A stretch of 64,000 nt of DNA from an uncultured Prevotella sp. Lineage in GTDB: Bacteria; Bacteroidota; Bacteroidia; Bacteroidales; Bacteroidaceae. The first letter of the stretch is position 1, and each line of letters opens with the position of its first letter. The notes under the pieces were generated by a model, which saw only the letters and a list, made by a program, of their open reading frames with translations, was not told where the DNA came from and made no database searches. Of this stretch, positions 4,260 to 58,400 are shown piece by piece. The stretch is taken from positions 71,022 through 135,021 of the forward strand of contig CAZEEP010000001.1 of assembly GCA_964511295.1 (NCBI GenBank), read 5' to 3'. A program made the translations under genes and the position numbers.

Positions 4260-4280
4260 AGTTCTTAAGCTTTCGAGAAG

Positions 4281-14442: not shown

Positions 14443-14811
14443 ATTATGGTTCTGATTTATGTTTATACGTTTTTACGTTCTTTTTCCGGTTTTTGCTTTT
14501 CGCTGCGAAGTTAATAAATTATAACTACATGTGTGTTTATTTTTTTTCAATATTTGTACGCTTTGCCTTGGAAACAACGCTTTTGCACACAATTGTCAGA
14601 GAAGCGTACAAACTGGGGGGGGTAAGCGCCTGTGCGTTTTTTAGCCCTTTTTGTTTATTTTCATCGCTAAGACGGCTTCGAACAATTTTGTCGTAGAAAC
14701 AGACATGCCGTTCTGTTTTTTTTTGCCAAATTTGCAGCGCAAACCAATAGAGACAATTTCTCATAAGCTAAAAATGAAAACACACATTATTATAATAAAG
14801 CATTTACGTCT

Positions 14812-14932
14812 TTGTCGTGACGCGGCAAAGCTTTCGTCGGATTGCGACAAAGCTTTTGACGTATTGCCATAAAAGTTTCGTCGGCACGCGATAAAACTTT
14901 TGCCGCAAGGCGAAAAAATGACAATCGGGGCG
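14812..14932. promoter_or_regulatory. Operator-like array of five tandem units with exact 22-bp spacing in the divergent PUL promoter region
   Basis: The units are GCGGCAAAGCTTTCGTCGGATT, GCGACAAAGCTTTTGACGTATT, GCCATAAAAGTTTCGTCGGCAC, GCGATAAAACTTTTGCCGCAAG and GCGAAAAAATGACAATCGGGGC. Their YGCGR cores start at 14821, 14843, 14865, 14887 and 14909. Each unit is an imperfect palindrome, CGnCAAA..TTTnGnCG. Confidence 0.5.
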
Positions 14933-15095: not shown

Positions 15096-17417
15096 ATGAT
15101 TAAAAGGTTTACTTCAGTAGCGATTTTGGCAGCAAGCTGCTTCTTCGCTTATGCACAGGAGGTGGATTTGACTCAGTTCCAGACCCTTCCCACAGAGAAA
15201 GGTAAGGGCGTGACCACATCTCTGCAAAACAACGGCATTTGGGTGGCTTACAAGGCTGCACCAGGCACCAATCTCGGTTCTGCCACTTGGGCAAAGTTTA
15301 ACAATCCTTGGGGCGGTAACGGCCGCGTGTACTTGGAGAATGCCGGTAAGGACGAAGAAGGCAACGACATGTACATCATTGCCGGACAGGGAAGGTTCAT
15401 CACCGACTTTGGCGATGACGGCCGTTCAATAGTCGGCATAAAGGCTGATGCCAAGCCTTTCTCGGCAGTCCGAGACACGGAAGGCAAGCTGTATTTCAAG
15501 GATCCTGTTGACAATAAATTCCTTATAGCCGACAATGGCAATACCGACAATATCCTCATGAAAAGCGACGCTGATGCCACAGGCTGGGAAGTAGGCACAT
15601 GGCAGGGCGTCACTTTCGCGCGTCTCGACGTGAAGCCGTTTGACGGTGACGCAGGTGGCGTGAACATTGAAAAATGCGCCGACGGCTACTACTATGGCTC
15701 ACTCTATTTGCCTTTCGCAACAAAGGTACCAAACGGTAACACACTGCCTAACCAGCAACATGGCGATAAGGCTGTAAAGGTTTGGAAACTTGACGGTTAT
15801 GCTGACGACATTGAAGTAACGGAGCTGAACCCGGGCGATGACGTTCCGGCAGGAACGCCAATCCTCGTACGTGCAACGGCCATGAACGTTGACTTCCCAA
15901 TAGTCCCTACATCAGAATATGTTGACCAGCCAGCCGAGGAAAGCTTCTTCACAGGCTATTACACCGTGGCTCCCGAAGGCGAGAATTTCCAGCTCAGCAT
16001 CAGCGACGGCTATCCAAAATTCGCCAGAGCGGCAATCATCACTGACCCGGAATCGCCAAACGCAATAAGGCAGGCAGCAGTGAACCTCGGCTACATCTTG
16101 GCTAACAATGACAATGAAGACATCTTTGAGTATCGTTTCGACTTCGAGAATAACACCTTGACAGGTTATGAGAATCCCGACTACAAGAGAGTTCTTGAAA
16201 ACAAATACTCAGAGCTGCTGAACAACGCAGGCACACCTTTCGGCATCGACCCAGCTGCTGCTGAAGAAATCAAAGCAGAGATAGCCGCCCTCGACGACCC
16301 GACAGAGGAAGAATACGACGCAATAGTTGAAAAAATCTCAAACAGCACTTACTATCCCGACGTCGTTTACACCGCCATCAAGAACAATGGCTATGCCGGC
16401 GACAGGGAACAGAGTGACCGTCAAGGCATGCATGCAGACTTCGGCACTCCTAACGGAGCCAACGGCCGCGCATACCTGAAGAAGGCAGACGAAAGCGGCT
16501 CGAAATACTATTTCGGCTTCAACGGACGCTACGTGCAGGCTCCTGTAGTGGGCGAGCAATGCACACTCGGCACCGATCCCGTGGCTTTCGACCTGACAGT
16601 AACAGGAATCGGCCAGTTCACGCTGGCATACGAAGGCATAGCACTTGTAGACGCAGGTGCCCAAATGCAGGGCGGCAACCTCTACGCACAGGATGAAGAC
16701 GGCAACGACAGAGAAGACGAGGAGGGCAACAAGACCGTAAACGGCAATGCCATCTGGACTGTCGAAAACAGCTACAACAACTGGGTAAGAGCTGACGCAA
16801 AGGTAGACCTTTCAGACGTGACAGGCTTGCGCTATGGCACCATAACAGTGCCTTATGACGTGAAGGCAGACAAGGACAATGATGCAGAGGCACGCTTGTT
16901 CATCATGAACTATAACGACGATGACGACCTCGTGCTCAATGAGGTGGAGACTCTGCCGGCAGGTACACCGGGTGTCGTGGCTGGCACAAGCGCCTCGATT
17001 CTTCTCAACATAACCGGCGGCTACGTCACCGAGCCTGTATTCGATCTTAACAACAACGCCCTGATTGGCATCATGAATGGAAGCAACAAGCCGGCAACAG
17101 ACACCTATACATATCCCCACTTCCTCGCAAAAGGCACAACAGAAGGCGACGATGTCACCACCATACCAGAGTCATGCCTGGTAATGTCAACCACCGGCGG
17201 CAGCTATGACATCAACATGGCTTTCCTTGACGGAATGAATAACGCCAGCGACATGGAGGTCGTCAACTTCAAGAGCATCGTAACCGGCATCGAGAGCGTG
17301 CAGGCTCCTGCAACCAAGAAGGCAAGCAACGCCATCTACAACATGGCAGGACAGCGCGTAGGTGCTGACTACAAGGGCATCGTGATAAAGAATGGCAAGA
17401 AATACATCAACAAGTAA
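15096..17417 (+). CDS. Secreted protein of unknown function with a T9SS C-terminal sorting domain, 773 aa
   Basis: N-terminal signal peptide (AILAASCFFAYAQ). The C-terminal tail ..NAIYNMAGQRVGADYKGIVIKNGKKYINK matches the T9SS type-A CTD pattern. An internal duplicated module is present (YGSLYLPF..VTELNPGDDVPAGTPILV and YGTITVPY..NEVETLPAGTPGVV). No catalytic motif was recognised. Confidence 0.6.
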   Translation: MIKRFTSVAILAASCFFAYAQEVDLTQFQTLPTEKGKGVTTSLQNNGIWVAYKAAPGTNLGSATWAKFNNPWGGNGRVYLENAGKDEEGNDMYIIAGQGRFITDFGDDGRSIVGIKADAKPFSAVRDTEGKLYFKDPVDNKFLIADNGNTDNILMKSDADATGWEVGTWQGVTFARLDVKPFDGDAGGVNIEKCADGYYYGSLYLPFATKVPNGNTLPNQQHGDKAVKVWKLDGYADDIEVTELNPGDDVPAGTPILVRATAMNVDFPIVPTSEYVDQPAEESFFTGYYTVAPEGENFQLSISDGYPKFARAAIITDPESPNAIRQAAVNLGYILANNDNEDIFEYRFDFENNTLTGYENPDYKRVLENKYSELLNNAGTPFGIDPAAAEEIKAEIAALDDPTEEEYDAIVEKISNSTYYPDVVYTAIKNNGYAGDREQSDRQGMHADFGTPNGANGRAYLKKADESGSKYYFGFNGRYVQAPVVGEQCTLGTDPVAFDLTVTGIGQFTLAYEGIALVDAGAQMQGGNLYAQDEDGNDREDEEGNKTVNGNAIWTVENSYNNWVRADAKVDLSDVTGLRYGTITVPYDVKADKDNDAEARLFIMNYNDDDDLVLNEVETLPAGTPGVVAGTSASILLNITGGYVTEPVFDLNNNALIGIMNGSNKPATDTYTYPHFLAKGTTEGDDVTTIPESCLVMSTTGGSYDINMAFLDGMNNASDMEVVNFKSIVTGIESVQAPATKKASNAIYNMAGQRVGADYKGIVIKNGKKYINK

Positions 17418-17470
17418 TTCTCCCATAAACCACAGCCTACACACGCTGTGATTACGCAACACTTCCATCG

Positions 17471-17512
17471 GGCCATGCACAGACTGCCAACAACTCTGTG
17501 CATGGCCTTTTG
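17471..17512 (+). terminator. Rho-independent terminator after the 773-aa gene
   Basis: Perfect 13-bp stem GGCCATGCACAGA / TCTGTGCATGGCC (17471-17483 and 17495-17507), followed by TTTTG. Confidence 0.75.
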
Positions 17513-17573
17513 CTTATGCAGGAAAAAGAACATGTATGACGCAAATTCATACTGCGCAGCTGTTCTTTTTACG

Positions 17574-17581
17574 TAACTTTG
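17574..17581 (+). promoter_or_regulatory. Bacteroidetes -7 promoter box TAACTTTG upstream of the GH28 gene
   Basis: Exact TAnnTTTG match, 30 nt upstream of the ATG at 17611. Confidence 0.5.
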
Positions 17582-17610
17582 CAAGGCTTAAATATAAAAA
17601 CAGCAATTAT

Positions 17611-19026
17611 ATGAACACAAAACCAATTAGAAAAATTACCACATCACTATTGCTCCTTGCGAGCTTGACATCAACGGCTAAGAACATCGACATCCAAAGC
17701 TACGGCGTAGCGGCCGACGGCGTGACCATGCAGACGGCTAAGATACAGCAGGCTATAGACGAATGCTCAGCCACGGGCGGCGGCGTGGTGACGTTCGCTC
17801 CCGGCAAATACCTCACGGGCACCCTGCGCCTGAAGAGCAACGTGGAGATGCGCATAGAGCGCGGCGCAACCATCCTCGGCAGCACCAACGTGCCGGGCGA
17901 CTATCCCGTCCGCGCCCTGATCTACGCCGAGGGCATAGAAAACGCCGGCATCTCGGGCGAGGGAATCATCGACGGACAGGCAGACACGCCCGAATATCTC
18001 GCCCACGGCTTCAAGGTGAACGACGGCGTTCGCCCCAACGGCATCTTCTTCAAGGACTGCAAGAACATGACCGCCAAGGACTTCGAGATACGCGACGTGG
18101 ACAGCTGGACCTTCCGCCTTTTCCGTTGCGACGGCGTGAGAATACAGGGCATCAAGATCCACTCGCTCATGCAGGGCAACAACGACGGCATCGACGTTGA
18201 CGCACGCAACGTGACCATCACGGGATGCCTCATAGAGTGCGACGACGACGGCATCTGCCTGAAAAGCGACGACCCGAACTTCCTGCCGGAGAACATCGTC
18301 GTGAGCAACTGCGTCATAGCAAGCAACTGCAACCCCATAAAGTTCGGCACATCGTGCTACGCCGGCTTCCGCAACGTGACCATCACCAACTGCACCATCC
18401 GCCCCGCCACGGAAAGCCATATCTGGGACTGGTCGAAGGACTATGACCGCCTTGCCCCGAAAACCATCACCGGCCTTGCAGGCATAGCCATAGAATGCCC
18501 CGACGGAGGCAAGATAGAGCAGGTGGCAATCTCTAACATCACCATGAGCGGCATCATCACGCCCATATTCATCAACCTCAACAAGCGCCACGGCGGCGGC
18601 AAGGGCTACATCAAGGACGTTGCCATCTCGCAGATCAAGGCTGTTGCCTACGGCATCATCCCGAGCATCATAAGCGGCGTGCCGGGAATGCGCATAAGCG
18701 ACATAACCCTGCGCGACATAACCGTGGAGCACGAGGGCGGCGAGGCTGCAATGACAAAGAGGCTGCAGGAAAACCTCACCGGCTATCCCGAGAACAGAAT
18801 GTACGGCAGGAAGAACCCGGCAGGCGGACTGTACGTGCGCCATGCTGACAACGTGAGGGTGTACAACCTGCGCGTCGTACAGCGCAACAAGGACATGCGC
18901 CCGGCAGTGGTAGCCGACGACGTGAACGGCATGCAAATAAACGGACTGCAGACCGTGAACACGGGCAAGGACGCAGTTCAAGCCATCGAGAGCAGCAACA
19001 TCACCCTTGACGGAAAGAAAATCTAA
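17611..19026 (+). CDS. Glycoside hydrolase family 28 (polygalacturonase-like, right-handed beta-helix)
   Basis: TAKIQQAIDECSATGGGVVTFAPGKYLTGTLRLKSNVEM (pectate_lyase_3-like N-terminus). GH28 motifs GNNDGIDVD and CDDDGICLKSD. The start was trimmed to MNTKPIRKITTSLLLLASLTSTA (signal peptide), downstream of the -7 box. Confidence 0.8.
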   Translation: MNTKPIRKITTSLLLLASLTSTAKNIDIQSYGVAADGVTMQTAKIQQAIDECSATGGGVVTFAPGKYLTGTLRLKSNVEMRIERGATILGSTNVPGDYPVRALIYAEGIENAGISGEGIIDGQADTPEYLAHGFKVNDGVRPNGIFFKDCKNMTAKDFEIRDVDSWTFRLFRCDGVRIQGIKIHSLMQGNNDGIDVDARNVTITGCLIECDDDGICLKSDDPNFLPENIVVSNCVIASNCNPIKFGTSCYAGFRNVTITNCTIRPATESHIWDWSKDYDRLAPKTITGLAGIAIECPDGGKIEQVAISNITMSGIITPIFINLNKRHGGGKGYIKDVAISQIKAVAYGIIPSIISGVPGMRISDITLRDITVEHEGGEAAMTKRLQENLTGYPENRMYGRKNPAGGLYVRHADNVRVYNLRVVQRNKDMRPAVVADDVNGMQINGLQTVNTGKDAVQAIESSNITLDGKKI

Positions 19027-19032
19027 AAAGAA

Positions 19033-21756
19033 ATGGCACACAACAGGAACTTCCTTGAAATTCCGAATATCAAAGTGAAAGCGACTCTGATGCTTGCCGC
19101 ATCGCTCACTTTCGCCGCGGACGCTATGGCACAACAAACGTTCAGCCCGGAAAGCGTGGTAAAGGCGTGCGACGTGGTACGCACAGACTTCGTCGCCGAG
19201 ACGGTAGGCCTCTACCAGGGCAACGGCGAGATGGGGTGCACATACGCGCCCCTGGGCCTGCACTGGCATACCGATTACACCAACAAATACGGCGAGACAA
19301 AGCTGGTGAACCTCAACCACAGAGTGAGGGCAAGGTATCATCACGACTACCTCGTGCCGCTGTTGCAGGTCTATTGGAACGACTTCCCCAACAAGTCGGC
19401 GGCTACGGGCATAACCGGCTACGAGCAACGGCAGAGCTTCTACGACGGCACCGTGGACACGCGTTTCACGGCAAAAGGCGTCACGTATAGCGTAAAGACC
19501 TGGTTCGACCCCGTCGAGCCAAGCCTCGGCTTTATCAACATAAACGCCTCTGAGGCAGGTACAAAGATAACCGTCGACCCGATGGAGAACCCGCAGGCTC
19601 ACTACAGCCAGAAGATGGTGCAGCAAGTTTCTCTTGCCAAAGAGGGCGACAACACCTACCGCGTGACGGTGAACTGCAAGCAATGGCAGCAGAACGGCAC
19701 GCACGACTGCTATGTCCCCCACAGCAGCGACGTATATGTGTCCACCAACGCCACGATGAGCGTGGAGAACAACAACATCGTCATCTCACTGGCAAAGGGC
19801 GACAACTATGTGTGCCTCTCCTACGGGAAGCCGGCAACCATAACCCCCAAGGCTTCGCTTGCCCAGACGAGCGGCTGGTGGCACGGCAAATGGGACGAGC
19901 AAGGCATGATAAGCGTGAGCGACAAGAATGCCGAGAACACATGGGTGCGCTCCGTAGCGATGTTCCTTTCCAGCTACGACGACAGAAAGAACGGGCTTTG
20001 CCCGCCGCTGAGCTTCTCTGGAACCAACTGGAGCTTCTACTATCCGCAGGACGTGAGCTACGTGCATCCGGTGTTCCTCTCAACAGGCAACCTGAGCATT
20101 GCGCGGTCGTGGATTGAGAAATGGGCTACGGAAATAGACGGGCAGCGCGACTACACCAAGCGCATTTACAAGCAGGACGGCGTGATGATACCGTGGGTGT
20201 ACCCTTACAACGGTTTCGAGGGCTACCATGAAGGCGGTTTCCCCATGCACACCTACGCGCAGATACACCAGGGAGCCTACTACGTGCGCATGGCGCTGCA
20301 AGTGGCAAACCTCGTAAACGACGCCGCATGGACTTCCACCTACGCCATGCCCGTGCTCAAGGGAGTGGCAGAGTTCTACAGCAACATCGCCACCAAGCAC
20401 GACGACGGCTATTGGCACCTGTACAACAACCCGTCGAGCGGACAGGACGAGTTTGGCGGCGACAACAGGACAGACTACGTGGACGTGCTCTACAGTGCCC
20501 AGTACGTGCTTCAGCAAGCCGTAGAGCACGGCATCGACCCCAACGGGAGGTATTCGCAAATACTGAAAGACGGGCTTGCCTTCCCTGCCCTGCTCGACCC
20601 CACAGGCAGCTATTACTATGCTTTCCTTGGCGGCGAGAACACTTTCGGCTCGCAAAAGCATCCTTCGCAGCTGAACGAGCTTATCGACGACCCTGTCTAC
20701 AGCAACCCTTCCAATCCTGCCATATTCGTTTACCTGAAGCGCAACGAAATGACTATCGACGCTTCTAAGCCCTTCTACTGGGGCTGGACGCTTGGCGCCT
20801 TCCTGCTCTCAGGGTCTCGTCTCGGACTGACGGAGCAATGGAAAGCCGACTGGGAAAACATGAGGAAGTCTGACTATGTGGACTCAGAATGGATACAAAG
20901 CTTCGAGACATCCACTCACTGGAACATGTCTTACTACAACATCAACAATGGTTTCATAGCCCAATCGTTGCTTTGCAACCTTGTTGATGACTGGTACGGA
21001 AGGCTGGAGATTGGCAAGTGCAACCCCTGGGAAGGCACCCAATACTTCCGCAACATCGTTTCGCAGCTCGGCGTAAACGTGAGCGGCACAGTGGACGGAA
21101 AGGACTACGACGTGATGCTCACGGCGTGGAAAGACTGCTCTTTCAAGCTGTACGACCAAGAGGTCAATCTGAAGAAAGGCGAAAGCAAGAGGTTCAAAGG
21201 CACCGCGCCCGACTTCAAATATGACATCGTGATACCCGTAAACTATAGTCTGGAGGCCGAAAAGGCCTCCTTTCAAGGCGGGGCGCGCGTGTCCTCTGAC
21301 AACGACTGCTCCGGCGGCGCAAGGCTGGGCTATCTCGGCAAGGGGGCTACCGTTACGTTCAACTATGACGCTAAAAAAAAAGGACTGTATGACCTTACGC
21401 TGTTTTACATGACGAGCAACGACCGCTTTTTCGAGATAAATGTCAACGGCGGCGAGACCATCACCACGCCAAGCCTCAACAGCGGAGGCTGGAACGGCAA
21501 CTCGGCAGGCAGATACACTCTGCAAATAGAGTTGCAGGAGGGGAACAACGAGATAACGCTCGGCAACGCCAACGACGACGCCCCAAACTTGGACAAGATT
21601 GAGTTGAGCTTCAACGAAAAGGCAACATCCATCAGCATCCCGACCCAAGACCAGAGGCGCCAGGCTACATACACCATTGGCGGGCAACGTGTTCAGGGAA
21701 AGCCATCAGCGCCCGGGCTGTATATTGAAAACGGGAGAAAAGTGATCAAAGAATAA
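19033..21756 (+). CDS. Multidomain glycosidase-like protein: (alpha/alpha)6-like catalytic region, CBM6/35-like module and T9SS CTD, 907 aa
   Basis: The central region has a NPSSGQDEFGG motif resembling the TGPDEY catalytic motif of GH65 / clan GH-L enzymes. The C-terminal LEAEKASFQGGARVSSDNDCSGGARLGYLGKGATVTFNY..GLYDLTLFY..INVNG..GGWNG..LQEGNNEITLGN..APNLDKIELS fits the CBM6/35 pattern. The tail YTIGGQRVQGKPSAPGLYIENGRKVIKE is a T9SS CTD. The family assignment of the catalytic part is uncertain. Confidence 0.55.
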   Translation: MAHNRNFLEIPNIKVKATLMLAASLTFAADAMAQQTFSPESVVKACDVVRTDFVAETVGLYQGNGEMGCTYAPLGLHWHTDYTNKYGETKLVNLNHRVRARYHHDYLVPLLQVYWNDFPNKSAATGITGYEQRQSFYDGTVDTRFTAKGVTYSVKTWFDPVEPSLGFININASEAGTKITVDPMENPQAHYSQKMVQQVSLAKEGDNTYRVTVNCKQWQQNGTHDCYVPHSSDVYVSTNATMSVENNNIVISLAKGDNYVCLSYGKPATITPKASLAQTSGWWHGKWDEQGMISVSDKNAENTWVRSVAMFLSSYDDRKNGLCPPLSFSGTNWSFYYPQDVSYVHPVFLSTGNLSIARSWIEKWATEIDGQRDYTKRIYKQDGVMIPWVYPYNGFEGYHEGGFPMHTYAQIHQGAYYVRMALQVANLVNDAAWTSTYAMPVLKGVAEFYSNIATKHDDGYWHLYNNPSSGQDEFGGDNRTDYVDVLYSAQYVLQQAVEHGIDPNGRYSQILKDGLAFPALLDPTGSYYYAFLGGENTFGSQKHPSQLNELIDDPVYSNPSNPAIFVYLKRNEMTIDASKPFYWGWTLGAFLLSGSRLGLTEQWKADWENMRKSDYVDSEWIQSFETSTHWNMSYYNINNGFIAQSLLCNLVDDWYGRLEIGKCNPWEGTQYFRNIVSQLGVNVSGTVDGKDYDVMLTAWKDCSFKLYDQEVNLKKGESKRFKGTAPDFKYDIVIPVNYSLEAEKASFQGGARVSSDNDCSGGARLGYLGKGATVTFNYDAKKKGLYDLTLFYMTSNDRFFEINVNGGETITTPSLNSGGWNGNSAGRYTLQIELQEGNNEITLGNANDDAPNLDKIELSFNEKATSISIPTQDQRRQATYTIGGQRVQGKPSAPGLYIENGRKVIKE

Positions 21757-21775
21757 CATTTAACCAAGCAAAGAC

Positions 21776-24004
21776 ATGAGAAAAAGCTACTTATTAAGCC
21801 TGTTGCTTGCCATTTTGCTTGGCTTGCCGCCCATGCTCGTGCAGGCGCAAGGCGTGACAGGCTTCCTGAAGGTGTCGCAGCCGAGGCAGGGCGAGGTGGT
21901 CTTGAGCTATCAGCCGTCGAGGCTCGGCTTCATGGACGATATAGAGATAATAGTGCCGAAAGGCATAAACATAAAAGGCACAAACACCTACGTAAACATA
22001 ATAGGACGCGGAGAAGTGCCTCTCGACAGCCTGAGCAGCCAGCCGGTGGGCCGACATGGCAACAAGTCGGCTATCATGAGCGTAGGCTCCTACAGCATTG
22101 GCAAGTCGGCTAAAGGCAAGCTCCTCACGCTGCGCAACGTTGACCTCCGCCCTGCCAACACTCCTGCCGTCACGCTGCGCTTTACCAATGTCTCGCTCAG
22201 GAAAGGCAGCACAAGCAGCTTCAAGGCGCGCTACCTGCTCAGCGACAAATTCAAGATAGACAACGAGGCGTGGCGAGGCGAGGCATACGCCGTGGGCAAC
22301 GGGGAATGGTCGGCACAGTCGGAAGCAAAGTTTGTATACGGAAAACTTGACCCGGCAGTGACCCACAAGGAGGTACATGCCTCGGAGCTCGGCATCAAGC
22401 CCGGCGACGACTGCACGGCTCGGCTCAACGAGGCAATAGAAAACCTTAGCCGTAACGGCGGCGGCACCATAGTGTTCGGCGACGGCACCTACAACGTCCG
22501 CACGGTGAAGCTGAAAAGCCACGTGTGGCTGCGCCTCTCAAAAGGCACCTCCATACTGATGTGCGGCAAGGGTGACGCACCGGAAAAGACATGGTACAAG
22601 GACCATTCAGTGAATGCCGGCTCAGGCAGCCTTGACGCAACGCCGTATGACGACACCGACAACTACCTCGTAAAGCAGGACATGGGGCACAGCTTTTTCC
22701 ACAACGCCATGTTCGTGGCTGAGCGGCAGGAGGACATACGCATCGTCGGCAACGGGCGCATTTCGGGCAACAACTGGCTGAAGACGGGCAACGGCGAGCG
22801 CAACGACAAGATGTTCTCGCTAAAGCAATGCCGCGACATAGAGATTGGCGGCATATCCAACGGCCTTGACCTGTGGTATGACGAGCAGGCTGACGAGCCT
22901 TACTACCTGAACGCCAACGGACAGAGGGAGGGCGACACGTCGGGCATGATGCACATCGACAACGGCGGCCACTTCGTGCTTCTCGCCACAGGCACCGACA
23001 GCATAAGCTTCCACGACGTGTATTGCGGAAAGGCAAGCACCAACAACGCGCGCGACATCCTCGACTTCATGGAGTGCCGCTACGTGAGCGTCAGCAACCT
23101 CTACTCTAAGGTCAACGGCGACGACATCATGAAGATTGGCTCCGACTGCTCTCTGGGATTTACACGCAAGGCATGGCACTACATGGTGAGAAACGTCATT
23201 GGCGACACCAATTGCAACGTGTTCCAGATAGGCTCTGAGACTGCCGACGACATCACCGACGTATGGGTGGACAACCTCTACGTTCTCGGCACGAACAAGG
23301 CTGGTTTCTCCATTTCGTCAAACGACGGCGGAACCGTGAGCCGTATATGGTTCGGCAGCGGCAAGACGGGGACGCTGCGCCGCTCGCAATTCTTGCGCAC
23401 GCGCACGCCTTTCTTCCTTTCCATAGCCAACCGCGCCCGCGTGATCGGCTCCGACGCAAAGCCCTTCACATACAACGAGAACGGGATAGAGCGCAAGGAG
23501 CTGCTCGTGACGAACATCCCTATAGGCAGGGTCGAGAACATAAGCATACGGGGCGTTGACGTAAAGGAGGTGTATGCAGGCAGCTGCTACAGGACAACAA
23601 GATGGAAGCCATACAACGGGCAGGCTGAGTCTACGCCTATCATTGCCGGCTACAAGCTCCCGGACAATAAGGACGTAAAGGGCGGGCTGGGCTTCACCCT
23701 GCCCGACGGAGACATGAAGCGCGACGTGGAAAACGTCACCATAGAGGACGTGAACGTCACGCTAAAGGGCGGACACAAGCAGGAGGACGCCAACGCCATA
23801 CCGCCGGAGATGGGCTTTGGCAAGTTCAACATACGCGATTTCCTCGTACAACCGTCATGGGCGGTATGGGCAAGGCATGCCAAAGGGGTGAGAATATCCA
23901 ACAGCCGTTTCAGCACGGAAAAGAGCGACGGCAGGCCGGCTTTCCGCTTTGACGATGCCACGGACTGCGTGACAACAAACGTAACCACCCGCAATGGCGA
24001 ATGA
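21776..24004 (+). CDS. Pectin-lyase-fold (beta-helix) glycosidase-like protein, GH28-related, with an extra N-terminal domain, 742 aa
   Basis: Signal peptide. ELGIKPGDDCTARLNEAIENLSRNGGGTIVFGDGTYNVRTVKLKSHVWL (pectate_lyase_3-like). Beta-helix motif NNARDILDF..KVNGDDIMKIGSD, analogous to GH28 NTDGxD / DDxIAxKS. Confidence 0.6.
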   Translation: MRKSYLLSLLLAILLGLPPMLVQAQGVTGFLKVSQPRQGEVVLSYQPSRLGFMDDIEIIVPKGINIKGTNTYVNIIGRGEVPLDSLSSQPVGRHGNKSAIMSVGSYSIGKSAKGKLLTLRNVDLRPANTPAVTLRFTNVSLRKGSTSSFKARYLLSDKFKIDNEAWRGEAYAVGNGEWSAQSEAKFVYGKLDPAVTHKEVHASELGIKPGDDCTARLNEAIENLSRNGGGTIVFGDGTYNVRTVKLKSHVWLRLSKGTSILMCGKGDAPEKTWYKDHSVNAGSGSLDATPYDDTDNYLVKQDMGHSFFHNAMFVAERQEDIRIVGNGRISGNNWLKTGNGERNDKMFSLKQCRDIEIGGISNGLDLWYDEQADEPYYLNANGQREGDTSGMMHIDNGGHFVLLATGTDSISFHDVYCGKASTNNARDILDFMECRYVSVSNLYSKVNGDDIMKIGSDCSLGFTRKAWHYMVRNVIGDTNCNVFQIGSETADDITDVWVDNLYVLGTNKAGFSISSNDGGTVSRIWFGSGKTGTLRRSQFLRTRTPFFLSIANRARVIGSDAKPFTYNENGIERKELLVTNIPIGRVENISIRGVDVKEVYAGSCYRTTRWKPYNGQAESTPIIAGYKLPDNKDVKGGLGFTLPDGDMKRDVENVTIEDVNVTLKGGHKQEDANAIPPEMGFGKFNIRDFLVQPSWAVWARHAKGVRISNSRFSTEKSDGRPAFRFDDATDCVTTNVTTRNGE

Positions 24005-24042: not shown

Positions 24043-24091
24043 AAAACGATTGCGCCGTAAACGAATTCTGTTTGCGGCGCAATCGTTTTTC
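24043..24091 (+). terminator. Rho-independent terminator after the beta-helix gene
   Basis: Stem AAAACGATTGCGCCG / CGGCGCAATCGTTTT around a loop centred on GAATTC, followed by a T-run. It also forms the first two units of the 22-bp CGCCG/CGGCG array. Confidence 0.7.
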
Positions 24092-24210
24092 ACGCACGGC
24101 GTATGTGCTCTGCATGTACGGCGTGCGTGTGTCGTATGTACGGCGAATGTAATATCCACGCGCGGCGTGCGTGTGCTGTACGCGCGGCGTGCCTTGTCCG
24201 TAAGCCGTAC
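24053..24210. repeat. Tandem array with exact 22-bp phase, CGGCG-core family (locus A)
   Basis: CGCCG/CGGCG pentamers start at 24053, 24075, 24097, 24119, 24141, 24163 and 24185. These seven units each sit exactly 22 bp apart, and a degenerate eighth lies near 24204. Example unit: TACGGCGTGCGTGTGTCGTATG. Confidence 0.8.
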
Positions 24211-24273
24211 AAACCATATTCGTACAAATGTTCTTGACAGCCATGCACTATTTTATGTTTTTTGAAAAAAATA

Positions 24274-24305
24274 TTTGTAAATATAGAGAAAAACGAGTAA
24301 CTTTG
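24274..24305 (+). promoter_or_regulatory. Bacteroidetes promoter (-33 TTTG, 20-nt spacer, -7 TAACTTTG) for the HTCS gene
   Basis: TTTG at 24274-24277 and TAACTTTG at 24298-24305. The annotated ATG lies only 5 nt downstream. The mRNA is therefore leaderless, or the true start is Met5 (24323). Confidence 0.5.
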
Positions 24306-24310
24306 TAGAA

Positions 24311-27300
24311 ATGACTCTAAAAATGCGCAATCTACTTATAAAAAACATAGCAACTCTCGTATGCGTGATGCTCGCACCTCTTGGCATAATGTCCGAAAAC
24401 GTGCGGATAATAAATTCTTCCAACGGGCTGTCAAGCCAGTCGGTTCTGCGGCTGTGCCAGGACTCAAACGGCTTCATACTTGCCGGCACCTATACGGGGC
24501 TAAACCTTCTCAACGGCTTCAGTTGCGAGCCGCTCGGGATTGGCATCGGCCCTTTCCTGACGGCAGGCAGCATAATAGACGACATTCAAAAAGGTGAAGG
24601 GTCGGACATTTGGGTGCACACCAGCTTAGGGCTTGAAAAGTTTGACTTGCCAAACGGCACCTTTGAATACCATCCCGAGATTTCCGGAACATTCCGCCTT
24701 GCCACGAACAACAACGGCGTTGTAGCCGTGATGAAGGACGACGGCAAGATACACCTGTACGACAAAGCCAACTCAAAGTTCGACTATACAGGCATAGACG
24801 CACAGGGCTACAACAGGATTTGCAACTTCTTTGTAGACAACTACGACTACCTGCACATCGCGTACAACGACTTCCACCTCTATGGGAAAATAAGCAAGGA
24901 CGGCAACGGCCGCTACACGCTAAAGGCACTGCGCAAGCAAAAAAAGTCGATGTCATCGGGCGTGAGGGGCACATGGTATAAAGACGACTACGTGTTCGTG
25001 CTTGACTCAAAATACAACATATACAAGTCTGACATCACGCAGAACAGCCAAGGCAACTTGCTGCCGTCGTTTGTTTACAACATTGCCGGCCTCGTAAAGG
25101 AACGCGGCAATGTGTCGAAAATCATACATGACGGCAAGGACATCATCTTAGGCTTTCAGCACCAAGGAGCCGTGAGGCTTAAGTTCCAGTCGATGAACAC
25201 CAAGGTTTATGCCGAGGAACCGCTGCCGGTAAAGGGCGGCGTGGTGGACATACTGAAGGACCGCAACCAGGACATACTGTGGTTTGCCACCGACGGCATG
25301 GGCATATACCTGCTCAACCACGAGAGCTACAGCCTCAAAAACGAGATATTAAGCAGGCTGAGCGACAAGCTCATATCGCCCGTGCGCTCGCTGTACCGCG
25401 ACAAGCAGGGCAACCTGTGGGTGGGAACGAAAGGAAACGGAATACTGCGCTATCCGGCTTACCAGCCTTTCGGCAGCCGCGTGGAACCACAATATATAAA
25501 CAGCAGCAACTGCCAGCTCGTGAACAACTCGGTCTACAGCTTCGCGCCAAGCAGCATGAACATACTGTGGATAGGCTCGGACGGCGACGCTCTGAACTAT
25601 TATTCATACGCCACGCAAAGCATTGAAACCCTCAATGTAGGCGGCGGCAAGATGTACAACGTGCATGACATTGTGGAGGTAAGCCCCTCGGAGATATGGG
25701 TGGCTACGGGCGGACACGGCGTCTTCCGCATATCGCTTGACTACAGGCAAGGCAAGCCCGTGGCACGCAGCGCAAAGCAGCTTTTCTACGACAAGACGCA
25801 TCCCGGCAACTCACAGTTCACGTCGATCTGCCGACAGGGCGACAGATACCTCTGGATAGGCAGCCGCAGCAAGGGCGTGTACCGTTATGACCTAAAGACC
25901 GGCAAGACAAGAATATTCAGCTTTGGCGACGCGAACCACAATCCCAAAAACGACATCCTCTCGGTAAAGGTGCTCGACAACGGCCACGTGTTCTGCGCCA
26001 CATCGGCAGGACTCATAAGGCTCTATGACACCAATGACCCGATAAAGTGGGAAGTGGTTGGAGGACAGCACCTGCATAAAGGCAACGTGGTCTTCAGAAG
26101 CGCAACCTCCATAGGCAACAGCGTGTGGGCGGTGACCTCGAACGCCATAATAGTATATAACGACAAGACTAATTGCCTGACAAGGCTGACTGCCGACAAC
26201 GGCATCAAGATTTCGGAGTTCAGCGACGGCGCAGCCTACTACGACCCAAGCACGGGCATAAAGTACTTTGGAGGAACCAACGGTTTCGTGGCGGTGTCAC
26301 GCATTGACCCTAACGCCCCAAAAGACTATCACCCGCCACTCTACTTCCAAAACATCTCCTTCGGCGACTCCATCATGGCGCTGCCGCATGAAAAATGCGG
26401 CAAGGTGAAAATAGCCTACCGGCACAACGACTTCGTGCTGTCATACAACACCCCCGACTATATCGACGGTAGCAGCTATTTCTTCCAGTATCGCTTCAGC
26501 GACAGCGAGCAGTGGGTGGACAACGGCAACCACAGGCAGCTGAGCTTCACCAACCTCGACTACGGCACGTACAAACTCAAGGTGCGCTACATCAAGGGCG
26601 GATACACCAGCCCCGAGTACTGCCTCGTCATACGCGTGCTGCCGCCCTGGTACCTCTCATGGTGGATGAAGACGCTCTACCTGCTGTTCTTCCTTGCCGT
26701 CGGCGGATACATAGCCTACCAATACCTTGCAAGGCAACAGGACAAGCGCCAGCGCCTCGTGAACGAGATGAACCAGCAACGCAAGAACGATGTATACACG
26801 TCGAAGCTGCGCTTCTTCACAAACGTAACATACGAGTTTTCAGTCCCCCTGTCACTCATCGTCGGCCCCTGCCAGCGCATACTCGGCATGAGCGAACTAA
26901 ACCAGCATGTGCGCCACTACGTGGAAATAATACAGCGCAACTGCCAAAGGCTCAACAAGCTCATCAGCGAGATACTGGAGTTCCAACGCATAGAATCCAG
27001 CCACAGGCAAGTGAACATATTAAACGTCAAGGTGTCTGACGAAAGCTTGAGCTTGGTTGACATGTTCCAAGTGATGGCAGAGTCGAGGCACGTGAGGTTC
27101 ACGACAAACGTGCAGCCCAACATAACGTGGAGCACCGACTATGACGCGTTTGTAAACATCGCCACCAACATGCTCTCCAACGCGTTCAAGAACGTGCACG
27201 AGTATGGGAGCGTGGGCATGAGCCTGACGGTAGAGGACGACTGCCTGGTGATGACGTTCTCCAACACCGGCCCCGCCATCCCGAAAGAGAAGTTTGCGAA

Positions 27301-28384
27301 GATGTTCGACCGCTACAACATACTTGACCGTATAGAAGGCGGCAAGGGCAAGGATGAAACCGTACTTGAATTTGCCATAAGCCGCGGACTCATACTGCTG
27401 CTTAAGGGAGAGCTGGGCATGGACAACCATGACGGCGTGAACGTCTTCACAGTCAAGTTGCCAAGACTGGAGGTGGAAAACAATAAAAACGCCGACAGCG
27501 CAATGAGCTACATGGGCGAGCCTCATGCCATCGTGGAAAGCGAGCTCAGGTACAAGCCCAAGAACAAGATTGTGGACGACAAGCCGACGATAGTGCTGAT
27601 AGACGACAACGACGAAATGCTGTGGTTTATCAACGACTGCTTCGAACAGGATTATAACGTGGTGAGTTTCCGTGACAGCCAGGAAGCGCTGGACGAGATT
27701 GTGCATTACAACCCCGAGGTCATAATGTCGGAGATAGTGTTGCAGCCATTCAGCGGCATAGAGGTGTGCCAACGACTGAAGCAGAACGTCGTCACGGCGC
27801 ACATACCGATAGTGCTCATCTCCACCGTCAACAACGACAAGACACGCATTGCCGCGATGGACGCCGACGCCGACGCGTACATACCACTTCCGTGTGACAT
27901 AAACTACATGCGCTCCGTGGTCAACAAATTCATGAAGTCGAACAAGACGCTGAAGAACTACTATGAGTCTTCGCTGTCAAGCTACGAGTTCGTGAACGCC
28001 AAGTTCATACACAAGGAAGACAAGGAACTGTTTGACAAGATGATGGAAATCATCAAGGACAACCTTACCAATCCCGAACTGTCCACACAATTCATAGCCG
28101 CAAAGCTTGGACTGGGCGTAAGAAACCTCTACAGGAGGTTACAAAACATTACGGACAAGAAGCCAAGCGCATTTATCAAGGACATGAGATTGGAGAAGGC
28201 GCGGCAGTTGCTCACAAAGTCGAAAATGTCGATGGAGGAAGTTTGTTACAATTCGGGCTTTGTCAACCGCGGCACCTTCTACAAGCTGTTTGCCGCCAAG
28301 TTCAACTGCACTCCCAAGCAGTATCATGACATGATGATAGGCAAGACCGAGGAGATGCTGTCGGACTATAGCGACGAAGATTAG
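24311..28384 (+). CDS. Hybrid two-component system (HTCS) regulator with beta-propeller/Y_Y_Y sensor, TM, HisKA-like, HATPase-like, receiver-like and AraC HTH domains; phosphorelay residues are degenerate
   Basis: Architecture read from the translation. The propeller repeats include GLNLLNG, WFATDGMGIYLL, LWVGTKGNGILRY and LWIGSRSKGVYRY. The TM segment is LYLLFFLAVGGYIAY. The H-box-like sequence is FFTNVTYEFSVPLSLI. The receiver-like sequence is TIVLIDDNDE..PEVIMSEIVLQP, and the C-terminal AraC HTH is ..EEVCYNSGFVNRGTFYKLFAAKFNCTPKQY. Confidence 0.85.
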   Translation: MTLKMRNLLIKNIATLVCVMLAPLGIMSENVRIINSSNGLSSQSVLRLCQDSNGFILAGTYTGLNLLNGFSCEPLGIGIGPFLTAGSIIDDIQKGEGSDIWVHTSLGLEKFDLPNGTFEYHPEISGTFRLATNNNGVVAVMKDDGKIHLYDKANSKFDYTGIDAQGYNRICNFFVDNYDYLHIAYNDFHLYGKISKDGNGRYTLKALRKQKKSMSSGVRGTWYKDDYVFVLDSKYNIYKSDITQNSQGNLLPSFVYNIAGLVKERGNVSKIIHDGKDIILGFQHQGAVRLKFQSMNTKVYAEEPLPVKGGVVDILKDRNQDILWFATDGMGIYLLNHESYSLKNEILSRLSDKLISPVRSLYRDKQGNLWVGTKGNGILRYPAYQPFGSRVEPQYINSSNCQLVNNSVYSFAPSSMNILWIGSDGDALNYYSYATQSIETLNVGGGKMYNVHDIVEVSPSEIWVATGGHGVFRISLDYRQGKPVARSAKQLFYDKTHPGNSQFTSICRQGDRYLWIGSRSKGVYRYDLKTGKTRIFSFGDANHNPKNDILSVKVLDNGHVFCATSAGLIRLYDTNDPIKWEVVGGQHLHKGNVVFRSATSIGNSVWAVTSNAIIVYNDKTNCLTRLTADNGIKISEFSDGAAYYDPSTGIKYFGGTNGFVAVSRIDPNAPKDYHPPLYFQNISFGDSIMALPHEKCGKVKIAYRHNDFVLSYNTPDYIDGSSYFFQYRFSDSEQWVDNGNHRQLSFTNLDYGTYKLKVRYIKGGYTSPEYCLVIRVLPPWYLSWWMKTLYLLFFLAVGGYIAYQYLARQQDKRQRLVNEMNQQRKNDVYTSKLRFFTNVTYEFSVPLSLIVGPCQRILGMSELNQHVRHYVEIIQRNCQRLNKLISEILEFQRIESSHRQVNILNVKVSDESLSLVDMFQVMAESRHVRFTTNVQPNITWSTDYDAFVNIATNMLSNAFKNVHEYGSVGMSLTVEDDCLVMTFSNTGPAIPKEKFAKMFDRYNILDRIEGGKGKDETVLEFAISRGLILLLKGELGMDNHDGVNVFTVKLPRLEVENNKNADSAMSYMGEPHAIVESELRYKPKNKIVDDKPTIVLIDDNDEMLWFINDCFEQDYNVVSFRDSQEALDEIVHYNPEVIMSEIVLQPFSGIEVCQRLKQNVVTAHIPIVLISTVNNDKTRIAAMDADADAYIPLPCDINYMRSVVNKFMKSNKTLKNYYESSLSSYEFVNAKFIHKEDKELFDKMMEIIKDNLTNPELSTQFIAAKLGLGVRNLYRRLQNITDKKPSAFIKDMRLEKARQLLTKSKMSMEEVCYNSGFVNRGTFYKLFAAKFNCTPKQYHDMMIGKTEEMLSDYSDED

Positions 28385-28413: not shown

Positions 28414-29910
28414 TCAACGAGCTTTCAACGGCTTTGCGCTGCCCATCGGTATGAATACGAACTCAATGCCCTTGCCGTGCTTGGGGTCGAGGTTGCGGCT
28501 GTAGCGCATGGTCTCCGGCGAATCCCAATGCTCAAACACGCCAAGGCTTTCCACGGGCTTGCCGCCCTGCATGTACTTAGTGCCTGAAGGCGCATTCTGC
28601 GGGTCAGCCATCTCAAGGAGATAGTCGCTTGCCTGGTTGCGGACGAGGATGCGCGGCACGTTGTAAAAACCTGTCTCCCTGTTGTTGATACTTTGCGCAT
28701 AGAGCAAGTCGAGCCCTACGCTTTCAAGCGCCACTTCGTCAAGCGAGGCAAGCAGCGATGCCGGCCAATCGGTGTTTTCATAAGGCTCCACCCTGTTGTA
28801 GAAAGGCGCATTGGGGAAATGCAAAGGATAGGAGGCGTGCTTCCTGCCGCAATAAAGCCCGTCGAGCATGAACAGAATGGTCTTCGCCCCAAGGTTTGGC
28901 GACGCGTTCAAGTCAACGAGCGGCGAGTATGCGTGAGGCTTGCCGTCTTGCTGCGTGTTCAGGAAATGGTGCATCTCCCACGGAGCGCGCACGCTTCCGG
29001 CATGGTTTTTCGCCGTCATGGTGACTGCCGTCTGCCCCTCGTCGCCAAGCTCCATATAATTGAACGGATAGCTGTGCAGCTTCAGCATGGCAAGGTTTAC
29101 GATGTAGGTAGCGTCATACACCTGTCGCGGAATGACCCTTGCGCCGTCAAATTTTCCAGCCGAATAGTCTATGGCACGAATCCAGTTAGGCTTCTGAAGA
29201 AGCGAGTGGTCGCCCGTTTTGGGGTTCACGGGCTGGTACTTGCGCACTCCCGGGTCGTCTTGCACAAACTTCACGTCGGGATATTCGCCCCAAACAAGGT
29301 TCAGAATCTCCGCTGCAATAGGGCGGCGACCGTCGTATATAATAATGTCTTGTGGGCGTACCCCTGCCGCTTTGACCAGCTGGCGAACCATTGCCAGTAT
29401 CACCTGCGGAGCCTCATCGCTCCTGTTGCTATATGTCTCGCGAGCCTTGGCGTTGTTGAGGTTCACCTTCACGGCAACGACCTCGCCCGGCTTGTAAGCT
29501 CCGTCTTTCTTGCCGAAACGCTGCTGGTAATAATACCTGAAAATCTTGCGCCACGCATCCTTGTCGCTTTTCGCGCCAGTCAGCCGCCTAAGCGTCACCG
29601 ACATCATTTCCGAGCATTTCTCCAAGTCGGTGTTCTCCGGCAGGAACCATTGGTCTTCCTCCACGTTCCATCTTCCTTTCCATCGGCACACCTCCGGGTA
29701 ACGTGTCATGACAACGCGTCCGGGATAGATGCCGCGCGCCTTGCCTATCGGCTGGTTGCTGACACCGGGCTTCCATGTAAACTCTTTCAGCAGGCTTTCC
29801 TTTATGGGCTCGGCGTTGGGATACTTCGTCTTGTCCCACGTGCCTTGCTGCGCCTGCACGGCAACGGCAAATCCAAGAAATGCCGTAAGAATAAACGCTT
29901 TTCTATTCAT
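28414..29910 (-). CDS. Secreted hypothetical protein, 498 aa; weak resemblance to the DUF362 family
   Basis: Signal peptide (FLGFAVAVQAQQ). VVAVKVNLNNAKA and APQVILAMVRQLVKAAGVRPQDIIIYDG resemble the DUF362 N-terminal pattern. The CDS itself is well supported by its length and codon bias, but the family call is tentative. Confidence 0.45.
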   Translation of the reverse strand: MNRKAFILTAFLGFAVAVQAQQGTWDKTKYPNAEPIKESLLKEFTWKPGVSNQPIGKARGIYPGRVVMTRYPEVCRWKGRWNVEEDQWFLPENTDLEKCSEMMSVTLRRLTGAKSDKDAWRKIFRYYYQQRFGKKDGAYKPGEVVAVKVNLNNAKARETYSNRSDEAPQVILAMVRQLVKAAGVRPQDIIIYDGRRPIAAEILNLVWGEYPDVKFVQDDPGVRKYQPVNPKTGDHSLLQKPNWIRAIDYSAGKFDGARVIPRQVYDATYIVNLAMLKLHSYPFNYMELGDEGQTAVTMTAKNHAGSVRAPWEMHHFLNTQQDGKPHAYSPLVDLNASPNLGAKTILFMLDGLYCGRKHASYPLHFPNAPFYNRVEPYENTDWPASLLASLDEVALESVGLDLLYAQSINNRETGFYNVPRILVRNQASDYLLEMADPQNAPSGTKYMQGGKPVESLGVFEHWDSPETMRYSRNLDPKHGKGIEFVFIPMGSAKPLKAR

Positions 29911-48006: not shown

Positions 48007-48043
48007 GCAGTAACACTCGTCAGCCTTGCGAGTGCCACACAGA

Positions 48044-48156
48044 CGGCGCACGTGTCACACTCGCACGGCGTGCGTAGATAGAACATACGCCGTACATAGA
48101 AGGCATGTACGGCGTACGTAAGTAGATATACGGCGTAAAGAATTCTTTACGCCGCA
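48044..48156. repeat. 22-bp-phased CGGCG/CGCCG array (locus B) between convergent genes
   Basis: Pentamers start at 48044, 48066, 48088 (CGCCG), 48110, 48131 and 48150 (CGCCG). It contains two perfect hairpins: TACGCCGTACAT/ATGTACGGCGTA, and CGGCGTAAAGAATTCTTTACGCCG centred on GAATTC. Confidence 0.8.
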
Positions 48157-56142: not shown

Positions 56143-56240
56143 CGCCGTCATCACCGTACCTCCACGCCGCTTACTTTGTACTTCTATGCCGCCTTCTTTG
56201 TACTCCTACGGCGGCATCCTTGTATCTTTACGCCGTAAAC
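56143..56240. repeat. 22-bp-phased CGCCG/CGGCG array (locus C, mostly inverted orientation)
   Basis: Pentamers start at 56143, 56165, 56187 (TGCCG), 56209 (CGGCG) and 56231, each exactly 22 bp apart. Example units: CACGCCGCTTACTTTGTACTTC, TATGCCGCCTTCTTTGTACTCC, TACGGCGGCATCCTTGTATCTT. Confidence 0.8.
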
Positions 56241-58191: not shown

Positions 58192-58265
58192 AGCCTCTTG
58201 TCGGATTCGAACCAACGACCCCGAGATTACAAATCACGTGCTCTGGCCAACTGAGCTAAAGAGGC
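58192..58265 (-). tRNA. tRNA-Thr (anticodon UGU)
   Basis: The reverse complement is GCCTCTTTAGCTCAGTTGGCCAGAGCACGTGATTTGTAATCTCGGGGTCGTTGGTTCGAATCCGACAAGAGGCT. It folds into a cloverleaf with a 7-bp acceptor stem, a GCTC/GAGC D stem, the anticodon loop TTTGTAA and a GTTCGAATC T loop. There is one T-T mismatch in the anticodon stem, and CCA is not encoded. Confidence 0.8.
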
Positions 58266-58267
58266 AG

Positions 58268-58366
58268 GTGGGCAAGCGGTTCTTATCGCGCCGCTACAAC
58301 CAAGTACCCTTGCTACGTTCCCGTCCTGGGGGATTCCGAGGGAGCTGGCCGTAAGAGACTTGCCCG
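58268..58366 (-). ncRNA. ffs: Signal recognition particle RNA (small/4.5S type)
   Basis: The reverse complement contains CCCAGGACGGGAACGTAGCAAGGGTA. This matches the helix-8 pattern CAGG-NNN-GGAA-NNN-AGCA-NGG of bacterial SRP RNA. The closing helix is GGGCAAG...CTTGCCC. The ends are approximate. Confidence 0.75.
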
Positions 58367-58400
58367 TGTTCATCTGAGGGGCTTGCCCCAAATGCGAGTG

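Follow-up and report, generated by a model that had tools for sequence, protein, structure and literature searches.

Hybrid two-component systems (HTCSs) are the main switches for polysaccharide-degrading genes in the gut and rumen Bacteroidota, and they are assumed to use His-to-Asp phosphotransfer. In BT4124, one of the canonical Bacteroides HTCSs together with BT4663 and BT1754, a hydrogen-bond latch of the C/SHIP-D-K type ties the DNA-binding domain to the receiver as long as the latter is unphosphorylated, and latch mutants bind DNA independently of phosphorylation (PMC11253607, PMC13292587). In this study, we analysed an HTCS of 1357 residues encoded on a window of 64,000 nucleotides (the whole stretch of DNA under analysis), which is assigned to an uncultured Prevotella of the Bacteroidales. 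The window protein has the same end-to-end architecture as the canonical HTCSs, with a homologous sensor (4A2L) and a homologous receiver and DNA-binding domain (12aw), and its gene likewise lies among glycan-degrading genes and SusC/SusD, but it differs from them in that the phospho-His, the G2 lid, the phospho-Asp and the receiver Lys are all replaced. By architecture and descent it is an HTCS, yet one that appears to fail the defining chemistry of its family, and the label that suits it best is pseudo-HTCS, for a single chain that unites a pseudokinase with a pseudo-receiver.

Both pseudokinases and pseudo-receivers have been described before, as has one HTCS that lacks the His. This HTCS, BT4236 of B. 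thetaiotaomicron, carries Gln848 at the phospho-His site, and its authors suggested a phosphorylation-independent mechanism for it (PMC11253607). It resembles the window protein in lacking the His and in having a non-consensus latch between receiver and DNA-binding domain; it differs in that Gln, not Tyr, takes the place of His, and its mention is confined to a single sentence, with no characterisation. A literature search for HTCSs together with pseudokinases or a missing histidine found only this remark, BT4236 was not among the relatives that we retrieved, and its CSIP-EK latch occurred in none of the sequences. The histidine pseudokinase DivL of Caulobacter has Tyr550 for His (PDB 4Q20) and acts by binding and conformational change, not by catalysis (PMC4211667). 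Its likeness to the window protein lies in the Tyr at the phospho-His of a retained DHp/CA fold and in the conserved docking surface around that Tyr. However, DivL has retained all of its N, G1, F and G2 boxes, and the phosphorylated regulator that it senses is a separate protein, whereas the window protein has no ATP lid left and its partner receiver is both fused and dead. Pseudo-receivers account for several percent of receivers, with Asp-to-Glu as the commonest change (PMC12632262). In these (PMC12632262, PMC4395418), as in plant pseudo-response regulators and in the window protein, PF00072 is still recognised while catalytic residues are missing; they differ in that Arg usually replaces the Lys there and Leu does so here, and in that the pseudo-receiver here shares a chain with its own dead kinase. 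Furthermore, SusR, a membrane sensor fused to a DNA-binding domain, shows that Bacteroides glycan loci can be run with no phosphorelay (PMC3878776). The principle proposed below for the window protein is the same, namely a sensor in the periplasm, a single membrane anchor and a DNA-binding domain in the cytoplasm, in the absence of a phosphorelay. ToxR and CadC are membrane-bound one-component regulators of a like principle. In contrast to all three, whose cytoplasmic parts are non-homologous, the window protein has kept a stretch of about 400 residues, the dead kinase and receiver, that separates the membrane from the DNA-binding domain, and no homology to the SusR sensor and C-terminal DNA-binding domain was found, all domains being of the HTCS type.

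Sequence searches gave full-length matches of the window protein to more than 100 HTCSs. Pfam recovered the complete set of HTCS domains, each above its gathering score, in the order of periplasmic Reg_prop/Y_Y_Y sensor, transmembrane helix, HisKA, HATPase_c, receiver and AraC-type HTH on a single chain, and the sensor matched the solved HTCS sensor domains 4A2L (E 1e-34) and 3V9F. The three phosphorelay domains (HisKA, HATPase_c and Response_reg) scored low, though above the cut-off. Their register was checked with three types of alignment: phmmer against solved histidine kinases and the BT4124 structure 12aw of receiver and DNA-binding domain, a MAFFT alignment of 120 homologues, and a profile hidden Markov model (HMM) built from 106 canonical relatives in which His, Asp and Lys are present. 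The profile HMM aligned the cytoplasmic part in one piece (573 bits) with high posterior throughout, and all three types placed Tyr841, VLEF, Glu1141 and Leu1193 in the same register. First, the H-box, canonically niaHEf, reads NVTYEF, with Tyr841 (codon TAC) at the phospho-His site; phmmer pairs fvsNVsHElrtPL of the solved kinases with FFTNVTYEFSVPL. Second, the G2 box, canonically srnGlGLai, reads ETVLEFAI, so that the GxGLGL lid has become ETVLEFA and VLEF stands for GLGL (GGTGLGLAI against DETVLEFAI in phmmer). Third, the receiver acceptor motif, canonically liitDimmp, reads VIMSEIVLQ, with Glu1141 (codon GAG) at the phospho-Asp site, where it pairs with D1240 of BT4124 (LIISDVMMP of 12aw against VIMSEIVLQ). 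Fourth, the receiver Lys motif, canonically YitKPF, reads YIPLPC, with Leu1193 paired with the YITKPF Lys of BT4124 (DDYITKPF of 12aw against ADAYIPLPC). In the MAFFT alignment these columns hold His in 113 of 120 homologues, Asp in 114/120 and Lys in 112/120. An earlier note on this DNA had read all four changes by eye and had named in advance a profile alignment with His and Asp back in register as grounds for giving them up; neither residue was restored by the profile, and the four readings stand.

Other parts of the earlier note call for correction. It had listed the G1 box, which reads NTGPA, as degenerate, but Asp-to-Asn in that box is a subfamily trait of about half of the homologues and no specific loss (55 N vs 58 D in the MAFFT column, including working-looking relatives that bear His and Asp); within G1 only the second Gly-to-Ala is unusual, and it is shared by the His/Asp-bearing sister P0005. 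The assertion that every phosphorelay-critical position is substituted was also overstated: the protein still has Asn957 of the N-box, both residues of the acidic pair (Asp1098 and Asp1099), Ser1171 and the switch residue Tyr1190. Asn957 itself is kept in the window protein but is Tyr in three orthologue clusters, and for this reason ATP binding is evidently not being maintained, while the loss of the ATP lid predicts that there is no kinase activity. Taken together, the protein has no phosphorylatable His in the H-box, no CA domain with the N, G1 and G2 boxes of an ATP-binding one, and neither a phospho-accepting Asp nor a catalytic Lys in the receiver. It retains a histidine kinase fold with the phospho-His replaced, as in histidine pseudokinases, and a receiver that is still recognised by Response_reg with Glu for D, Leu for K and the DD and Ser residues in place, as in pseudo-receivers. 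Judged from these residues, the intramolecular His-to-Asp phosphotransfer that defines HTCSs should be impossible here.

The fold of the cytoplasmic part is predicted to persist. An AlphaFold2 (AF2) model of residues 807-1357, computed with 55 aligned sequences and read for confidence and secondary structure, had a mean pLDDT of 87.3 and a pTM of 0.67 and contained a DHp hairpin, a CA domain, a (beta-alpha)5 receiver and an AraC domain with two HTH motifs; the boundary between the transmembrane and cytoplasmic helices was visible as well. The pLDDT was about 80-97 over DHp and CA (about 80-88 in the helical hairpin of DHp), and only the former ATP-lid stretch and the linker between CA and receiver were weak. 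Foldseek matched the kinase core to RetS (TM-score up to 0.85), HK853 and DivL.

The substitutions are shared by orthologues and are held under selection. Four orthologue clusters, at 99, 87, 70 and 69% identity and derived from separate assemblies of uncultured Prevotella, all carry Tyr, Glu, Leu and the lost G2 box. A copy in a Prevotella metagenome-assembled genome (MAG), an 88% match by tblastn that groups with the 87% cluster, has the same residues and the same lost box. We attribute the window to Bacteroidales because it holds a Bacteroidales small SRP RNA, and to Prevotella because the 88% identical orthologue in this MAG is fully syntenic. Synonymous codon variation was observed among the orthologues at Leu1193 (CTT/CTG) and around the sites. 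Selection was estimated as Nei-Gojobori (NG86) dN/dS (omega) between the window gene and the 87% orthologue (dS 0.64), the only pair that gives a clean value, since dS is saturated for the 69-70% orthologues. Omega was 0.10 overall, 0.12 in the sensor, 0.098 in HisKA, 0.093 in HATPase, 0.044 in the receiver and 0.042 in the HTH, so the gene is under purifying selection in every domain. One could suppose that a sequencing or assembly error, or a gene in decay, lies behind the low Pfam scores of HisKA, HATPase_c and Response_reg. However, the open reading frame is intact and of full length, the same residues recur in several independent assemblies and species-level variants, and omega is about 0.1 in every domain; this explanation is therefore refuted by the orthologue comparison and we give it next to no credence, in agreement with the earlier note, which had argued against a sequencing error.

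That every domain is under purifying selection argues for a protein that still functions in the absence of His-Asp transfer, as the earlier note had proposed, and the constraint on the sensor argues that sensing still matters. We favour, with slightly better than even confidence, a functional HTCS without phosphotransfer, in which signals would reach the AraC domain allosterically through the dead scaffold. The periplasmic propeller/Y_Y_Y sensor would still bind a glycan fragment, a change in the conformation of the DHp helices in the dimer would transmit the signal across the membrane, and the dead DHp/CA scaffold would contact the pseudo-receiver non-covalently and so act on the AraC DNA-binding domain, with the HIP-D-R latch residues between receiver and DNA-binding domain retained. 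The net effect would be a membrane-bound one-component regulator of the SusR/ToxR kind on a two-component skeleton. We infer that the protein depends on a ligand, that the route is allosteric and which genes are regulated, these being probably the genes of the adjacent locus. Because the sensor, the DHp around Tyr841, the receiver, the latch residues and the DNA-binding domain are all kept, the dead kinase and receiver would fit the part of a mechanical link. A kinase is reported to be able to activate its regulator allosterically, beyond phosphorylation (PMC4251995).

The distribution of conservation along the protein bears on both sides of this proposal. In the orthologues of 69-70% overall identity, the HTH is the best-conserved part of the protein (90-94%), followed by HisKA (78-82%), the receiver (74-80%) and HATPase (61-69%), whereas canonical pairs of similar divergence have a less conserved HTH (0.71-0.84) next to identities of about 0.79-0.91 in HisKA and about 0.68-0.79 in HATPase. 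Several observations weigh against allosteric signalling to the AraC domain. HATPase identity in the dead clade, that is, the window protein and its orthologues, is 0.61-0.69 against the values just given for canonical pairs, and its HisKA omega of 0.098 is about seven times that of His-bearing pairs (0.013-0.014); some constraint has therefore been relaxed, and the dead DHp is several-fold less constrained than a working DHp, yet far from neutral. In addition, a role different from the activation of transcription could likewise account for the selection on the sensor, solely the pattern of conservation points to the allosteric route, and no operator was tied to the HTCS, the direct-repeat array at the upstream operon (Table 1) being conserved in the closest genome only.

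The clade motif of the DHp, FFTNVTYEFSxP(L/I)SLIVGPCQR, has only two varying positions (one free, one Leu/Ile), and the Tyr at the His site is invariant. This invariance, together with a second His of the DHp that is conserved in the clade, His869, could be taken to mean that another covalent route has replaced the lost one, with Tyr841 phosphorylated by a tyrosine kinase, another His/Asp in use, or a kinase acting in trans; DivL, too, was reportedly first described as a tyrosine kinase. We regard such a route as highly improbable. The protein has lost its own ATP lid, the orthologues do not preserve the N-box Asn, and the receiver has neither an Asp in the vicinity of position 1141 nor the catalytic Lys. 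In other dead lineages the His site is taken by Gln, Asn, Arg or Lys, residues that could not be phosphorylated in this way, and the function of DivL is independent of Tyr phosphorylation (PMC4211667). As a separate observation in this domain, the window protein differs from its 99% identical relative P0001 at ten positions, and four of these differences (S861N, E862G, Q865E and H866Q) fall in the loop between DHp alpha1 and alpha2 (residues 861-866, about 26891-26908), and this cluster may be a small recombination patch or a relaxed loop.

The latch was mapped through the 12aw alignment and the residue numbers in PMC13292587. It reads A-H-I-P...D...R in the window protein, where the consensus of the receiver half is S/C-H-I-P and that of the last partner is Lys, and the Ala and Arg variants are also found in His/Asp-bearing relatives. 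Latch loss was considered as an explanation and rejected, because the motif does not separate dead from working relatives: with 2/33 dead and 8/108 canonical sequences, the two groups are alike in how often the full consensus is present (Fisher p = 1), and both variants, Ala and Arg, are older than the phosphorelay loss. The earlier note had also suggested that Glu1141 could act as a phosphomimetic, and carried further this would yield a constitutive regulator, in which Glu1141 mimics phospho-Asp, the receiver is locked on, the DNA-binding domain is always free and the sensor and kinase are leftovers. When the Asp of a pseudo-receiver is replaced, Glu is the most frequent substitute, and it can partly activate many regulators (PMC12632262); it is fixed in all four orthologue clusters and occurs in 7 of the 16 other Asp-less HTCS representatives surveyed below. 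However, Leu here occupies the place of the Lys that has been proposed as the partner of a mimetic Glu (PMC12632262), the Asp site of other dead HTCS lineages is Asn, Gly, Val or Ile, and the HIP-D-R latch residues are retained. Moreover, a leftover sensor should decay, whereas purifying selection acts on this sensor (about 755 aa, omega 0.12), which can still be matched to solved HTCS sensors. The phosphomimetic suggestion is thus weak, and a regulator locked on by Glu1141 seems to us quite improbable.

The nearest relatives that bear His and Asp, P0005 and P0006 (49% identity), give an indication of how the loss came about. Both keep His, Asp and G2, but the second Gly of G1 is Ala or Pro and the receiver Lys is Arg, and in P0005 the second acidic Asp is Ala as well. 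The Leu1193 codons (CTT/CTG) are one step from the Arg CGN codons. In relative-rate comparisons, the dead clade was farther than the sister from canonical outgroups in HisKA, HATPase and receiver, and not farther in the sensor and the HTH. Because P0005 and P0006 already lack the second G1 Gly and have Arg for Lys, these sequences suggest a stepwise decay, in which a relay that was weakened first may then have lost the His, the G2 lid, the Asp and the basic residue. The linker and DNA-binding domain of P0005 and P0006 are almost identical to those of the window protein, a similarity that would also suit a modulator instead of a primary regulator, which would form mixed dimers with, or dock to, a working HTCS in the manner of RetS or DivL, or would compete for its operator and repress independently of phosphorylation, after the example of BT4124, the second HTCS of PUL75 in B. 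thetaiotaomicron. RetS is the closest fold to the kinase core, DivL is a Tyr-for-His pseudokinase that acts via binding partners (PMC4211667), and active BT4124 represses several loci (PMC13292587). On the other hand, a second HTCS was not found in the 64-kb window or in the orthologous loci, and P0005 comes from a different genome, where the gene context differs from that of the window (GH92 and GH125 genes). We therefore judge a modulator unlikely and retain allosteric signalling to the AraC domain as the preferred explanation.

Two surveys of relatives outside the clade indicated that such losses are not confined to it. The first was a full-length search that gave 116 homologues, of which three lacked His at the aligned position; two of these three also lacked Asp, the losses of His and Asp being associated in this sample (Fisher p = 4.5e-4), and the third, P0103, had no recognisable kinase or receiver domains. 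Two further homologues had lost only the G boxes. For the second survey, the cytoplasmic part was searched exhaustively against 1.84 billion cluster representatives and the 137 nearest full-length representatives were kept; His and/or Asp were missing from 29 of the 137 (21%), a share probably enriched for dead sequences by the ranking on similarity to a dead query. His was replaced in 25 representatives (Gln 10, Asn 6, Tyr 4, Arg 3, Lys 2) and Asp in 16 (Glu 7, Asn 5, Gly 2, Ile 1, Val 1). Depending on how relatives are sampled, the true frequency of dead HTCSs would lie between about 3% and about 20%. In a neighbour-joining tree, the dead representatives stood on many scattered branches, pointing to many origins, and one subfamily comprised nine of them. 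G2 was intact in 4/25 His-less compared with 104/112 His-bearing sequences, and Lys had become Leu, Met or Ile in 11 of the 16 Asp-less sequences, while non-Lys residues occurred in 4/121 Asp-bearing ones. The losses of His, G2, Asp and Lys are thus coordinated, and what the earlier note had counted as five independent losses comprises real substitutions that are better seen as the coordinated decay of one pathway.

All replacements at the His site (Tyr, Gln, Asn, Arg and Lys) are polar, and most are single-step neighbours of the His codons; the polar-only pattern is only suggestive, and codon accessibility explains part of the residue spectrum. Tentatively, dead HTCSs might constitute a large, recurrent and undescribed class with purely allosteric signalling, in which the residues at the His and Asp sites would have ceased to carry phosphate and would form part of a permanent, signal-tuned contact between DHp and receiver, the two-component skeleton thereby becoming an allosteric transmembrane transcription factor. 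Such a class, to which we accord well below even credence, would fit because the His site is polar only, because a hydrophobic residue takes the place of Lys once Asp is lost, and because selection on the dead domains is ongoing. In addition, P0103, P0191, P0196 and P0252 (about 1160-1260 aa) were observed to keep the sensor and the AraC domain with a kinase region that is unrecognisable or only partly aligned, which suggests a further stage of relay decay.

For specialists, the interest of the window protein lies in the completeness of the loss, in the continued selection on dead domains and in the unexpected frequency of parallel cases. A lineage without transfer in which the sensor, the dead domains and the DNA-binding domain are all selected suggests that the scaffold can carry a signal without phosphate, and it could allow allosteric coupling to be studied apart from phosphoryl chemistry in a naturally occurring two-component protein. 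Frequent dead HTCSs would also matter for annotation and for the sequence-based prediction of glycan-locus regulation, and they bear on the strategy, proposed recently, of activating HTCSs by latch mutations.

Table 1. Positions in the window of the HTCS gene, its domains and diagnostic residues, and neighbouring features.
Feature	Position	Strand	Residues	Remarks
HTCS gene	24311..28384	+		Longest open reading frame, 1357 aa, zero internal stops
Periplasmic sensor	24398..26659	+	~30-783	Reg_prop beta-propeller repeats and Y_Y_Y (Pfam)
Reg_prop repeats				Pfam 58.8 bits
Y_Y_Y			717-765	Pfam 29.1 bits
Transmembrane helix	26660..26728	+	~784-806	WWMKTLYLLFFLAVGGYIAYQYL; read from the translation
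HisKA/DHp domain	26804..26998	+	832-896	Pfam 39.4 bits; Tyr841 at phospho-His position
Tyr841 codon	26831-26833	+	841	TAC
HATPase_c (CA) domain	27137..27466	+	943-1052	Pfam 35.6 bits
N-box Asn	27179-27181	+	957	Kept
G1 box	27263-27277	+		NTGPA
G2 lid	27356-27376	+		ETVLEFA
Receiver (pseudo-receiver) domain	27590..27922	+	1094-1204	Response_reg (PF00072), Pfam 54.6 bits
Glu1141 codon	27731-27733	+	1141	GAG, at phospho-Asp site
Latch, receiver half	27797..27808	+	1163-1166	AHIP, Ala1163-Pro1166
Leu1193 codon	27887-27889	+	1193	At receiver Lys site
Latch, DNA-binding domain partner	28019-28021	+	1237	Asp
Latch, DNA-binding domain partner	28136-28138	+	1276	Arg
AraC-type HTH DNA-binding domain	28094..28327	+	1262-1339	HTH_18, Pfam 68.5 bits
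Putative HTCS promoter box	24299..24306	+		TAACTTTG; directly upstream of HTCS start
Upstream operon	15096..24004	+		GH28 gene and GH28-like rhamnogalacturonidase relative; ends just before the HTCS gene
About four 22-nt direct repeats	14810..14905	+		TGCGAYAAARCTTTYGNCGNNN; divergent promoter region ahead of the upstream operon
Gene of 498-aa secreted protein	28414..29910	-		Convergent with the HTCS gene; weak DUF362 signal

The true start of the HTCS is probably the ATG at 24323 (MRNLL...) and not that at 24311 (MTLKMRNLL), because the orthologues begin there and a conserved GTAACTTTGTA box directly precedes it. In the window this box reads TAACTTTG and fits the Bacteroidetes -7 promoter motif TAnnTTTG; it is kept as GTAACTTTGTA in every orthologous locus. 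We infer that it is the putative promoter of the HTCS, which is probably transcribed on its own because it has this conserved box just before the MRNLL start.

Farther upstream than the GH28 operon, the minus strand carries SusC, SusD and three fasciclin-domain proteins. The latter (571, 694 and 958 aa; 2544-6365 and 11566-14442) flank the SusC/SusD pair, and three such large proteins are an unusual accessory set for a glycan-use locus. The gene of the 498-aa protein is the only neighbour of the HTCS that is kept across all orthologous loci, and NCBIfam and PDB sequence searches with its product gave no match. Beyond it lie a CE15 glucuronyl esterase, a GH3 enzyme with a PA14 domain and a GH51 arabinofuranosidase.

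In published HTCS operators, direct repeats recur about every 20-21 bp (PMC3878776). The 88% orthologue genome has the array of 14810-14905 conserved at the corresponding place (L006 483-575), and the array was not found in L001 or near P0005; it is a candidate operator, and its assignment to this HTCS is speculative. Direct-repeat arrays with a 22-nt period and an ACGGCG (or CGCCG) core also occur between genes at 24074-24215, 48043-48130 and 56146-56240. The first of these follows a 20-nt hairpin (24043-24089), lies just upstream of the putative HTCS promoter, and is kept in the 87-88% orthologue loci and absent in the 69-70% ones. It was considered as a specific operator and set aside, because the ACGGCG arrays are dispersed (48043-48130, for instance) and therefore not specific to the HTCS gene, and because none stands upstream of the 69-70% orthologues. 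An Rfam scan of the window returned only a tRNA and the Bacteroidales small SRP RNA, both away from the HTCS gene; the two genes adjoin each other on the minus strand at 58192-58372 (SRP RNA RF04183, 118 bits).

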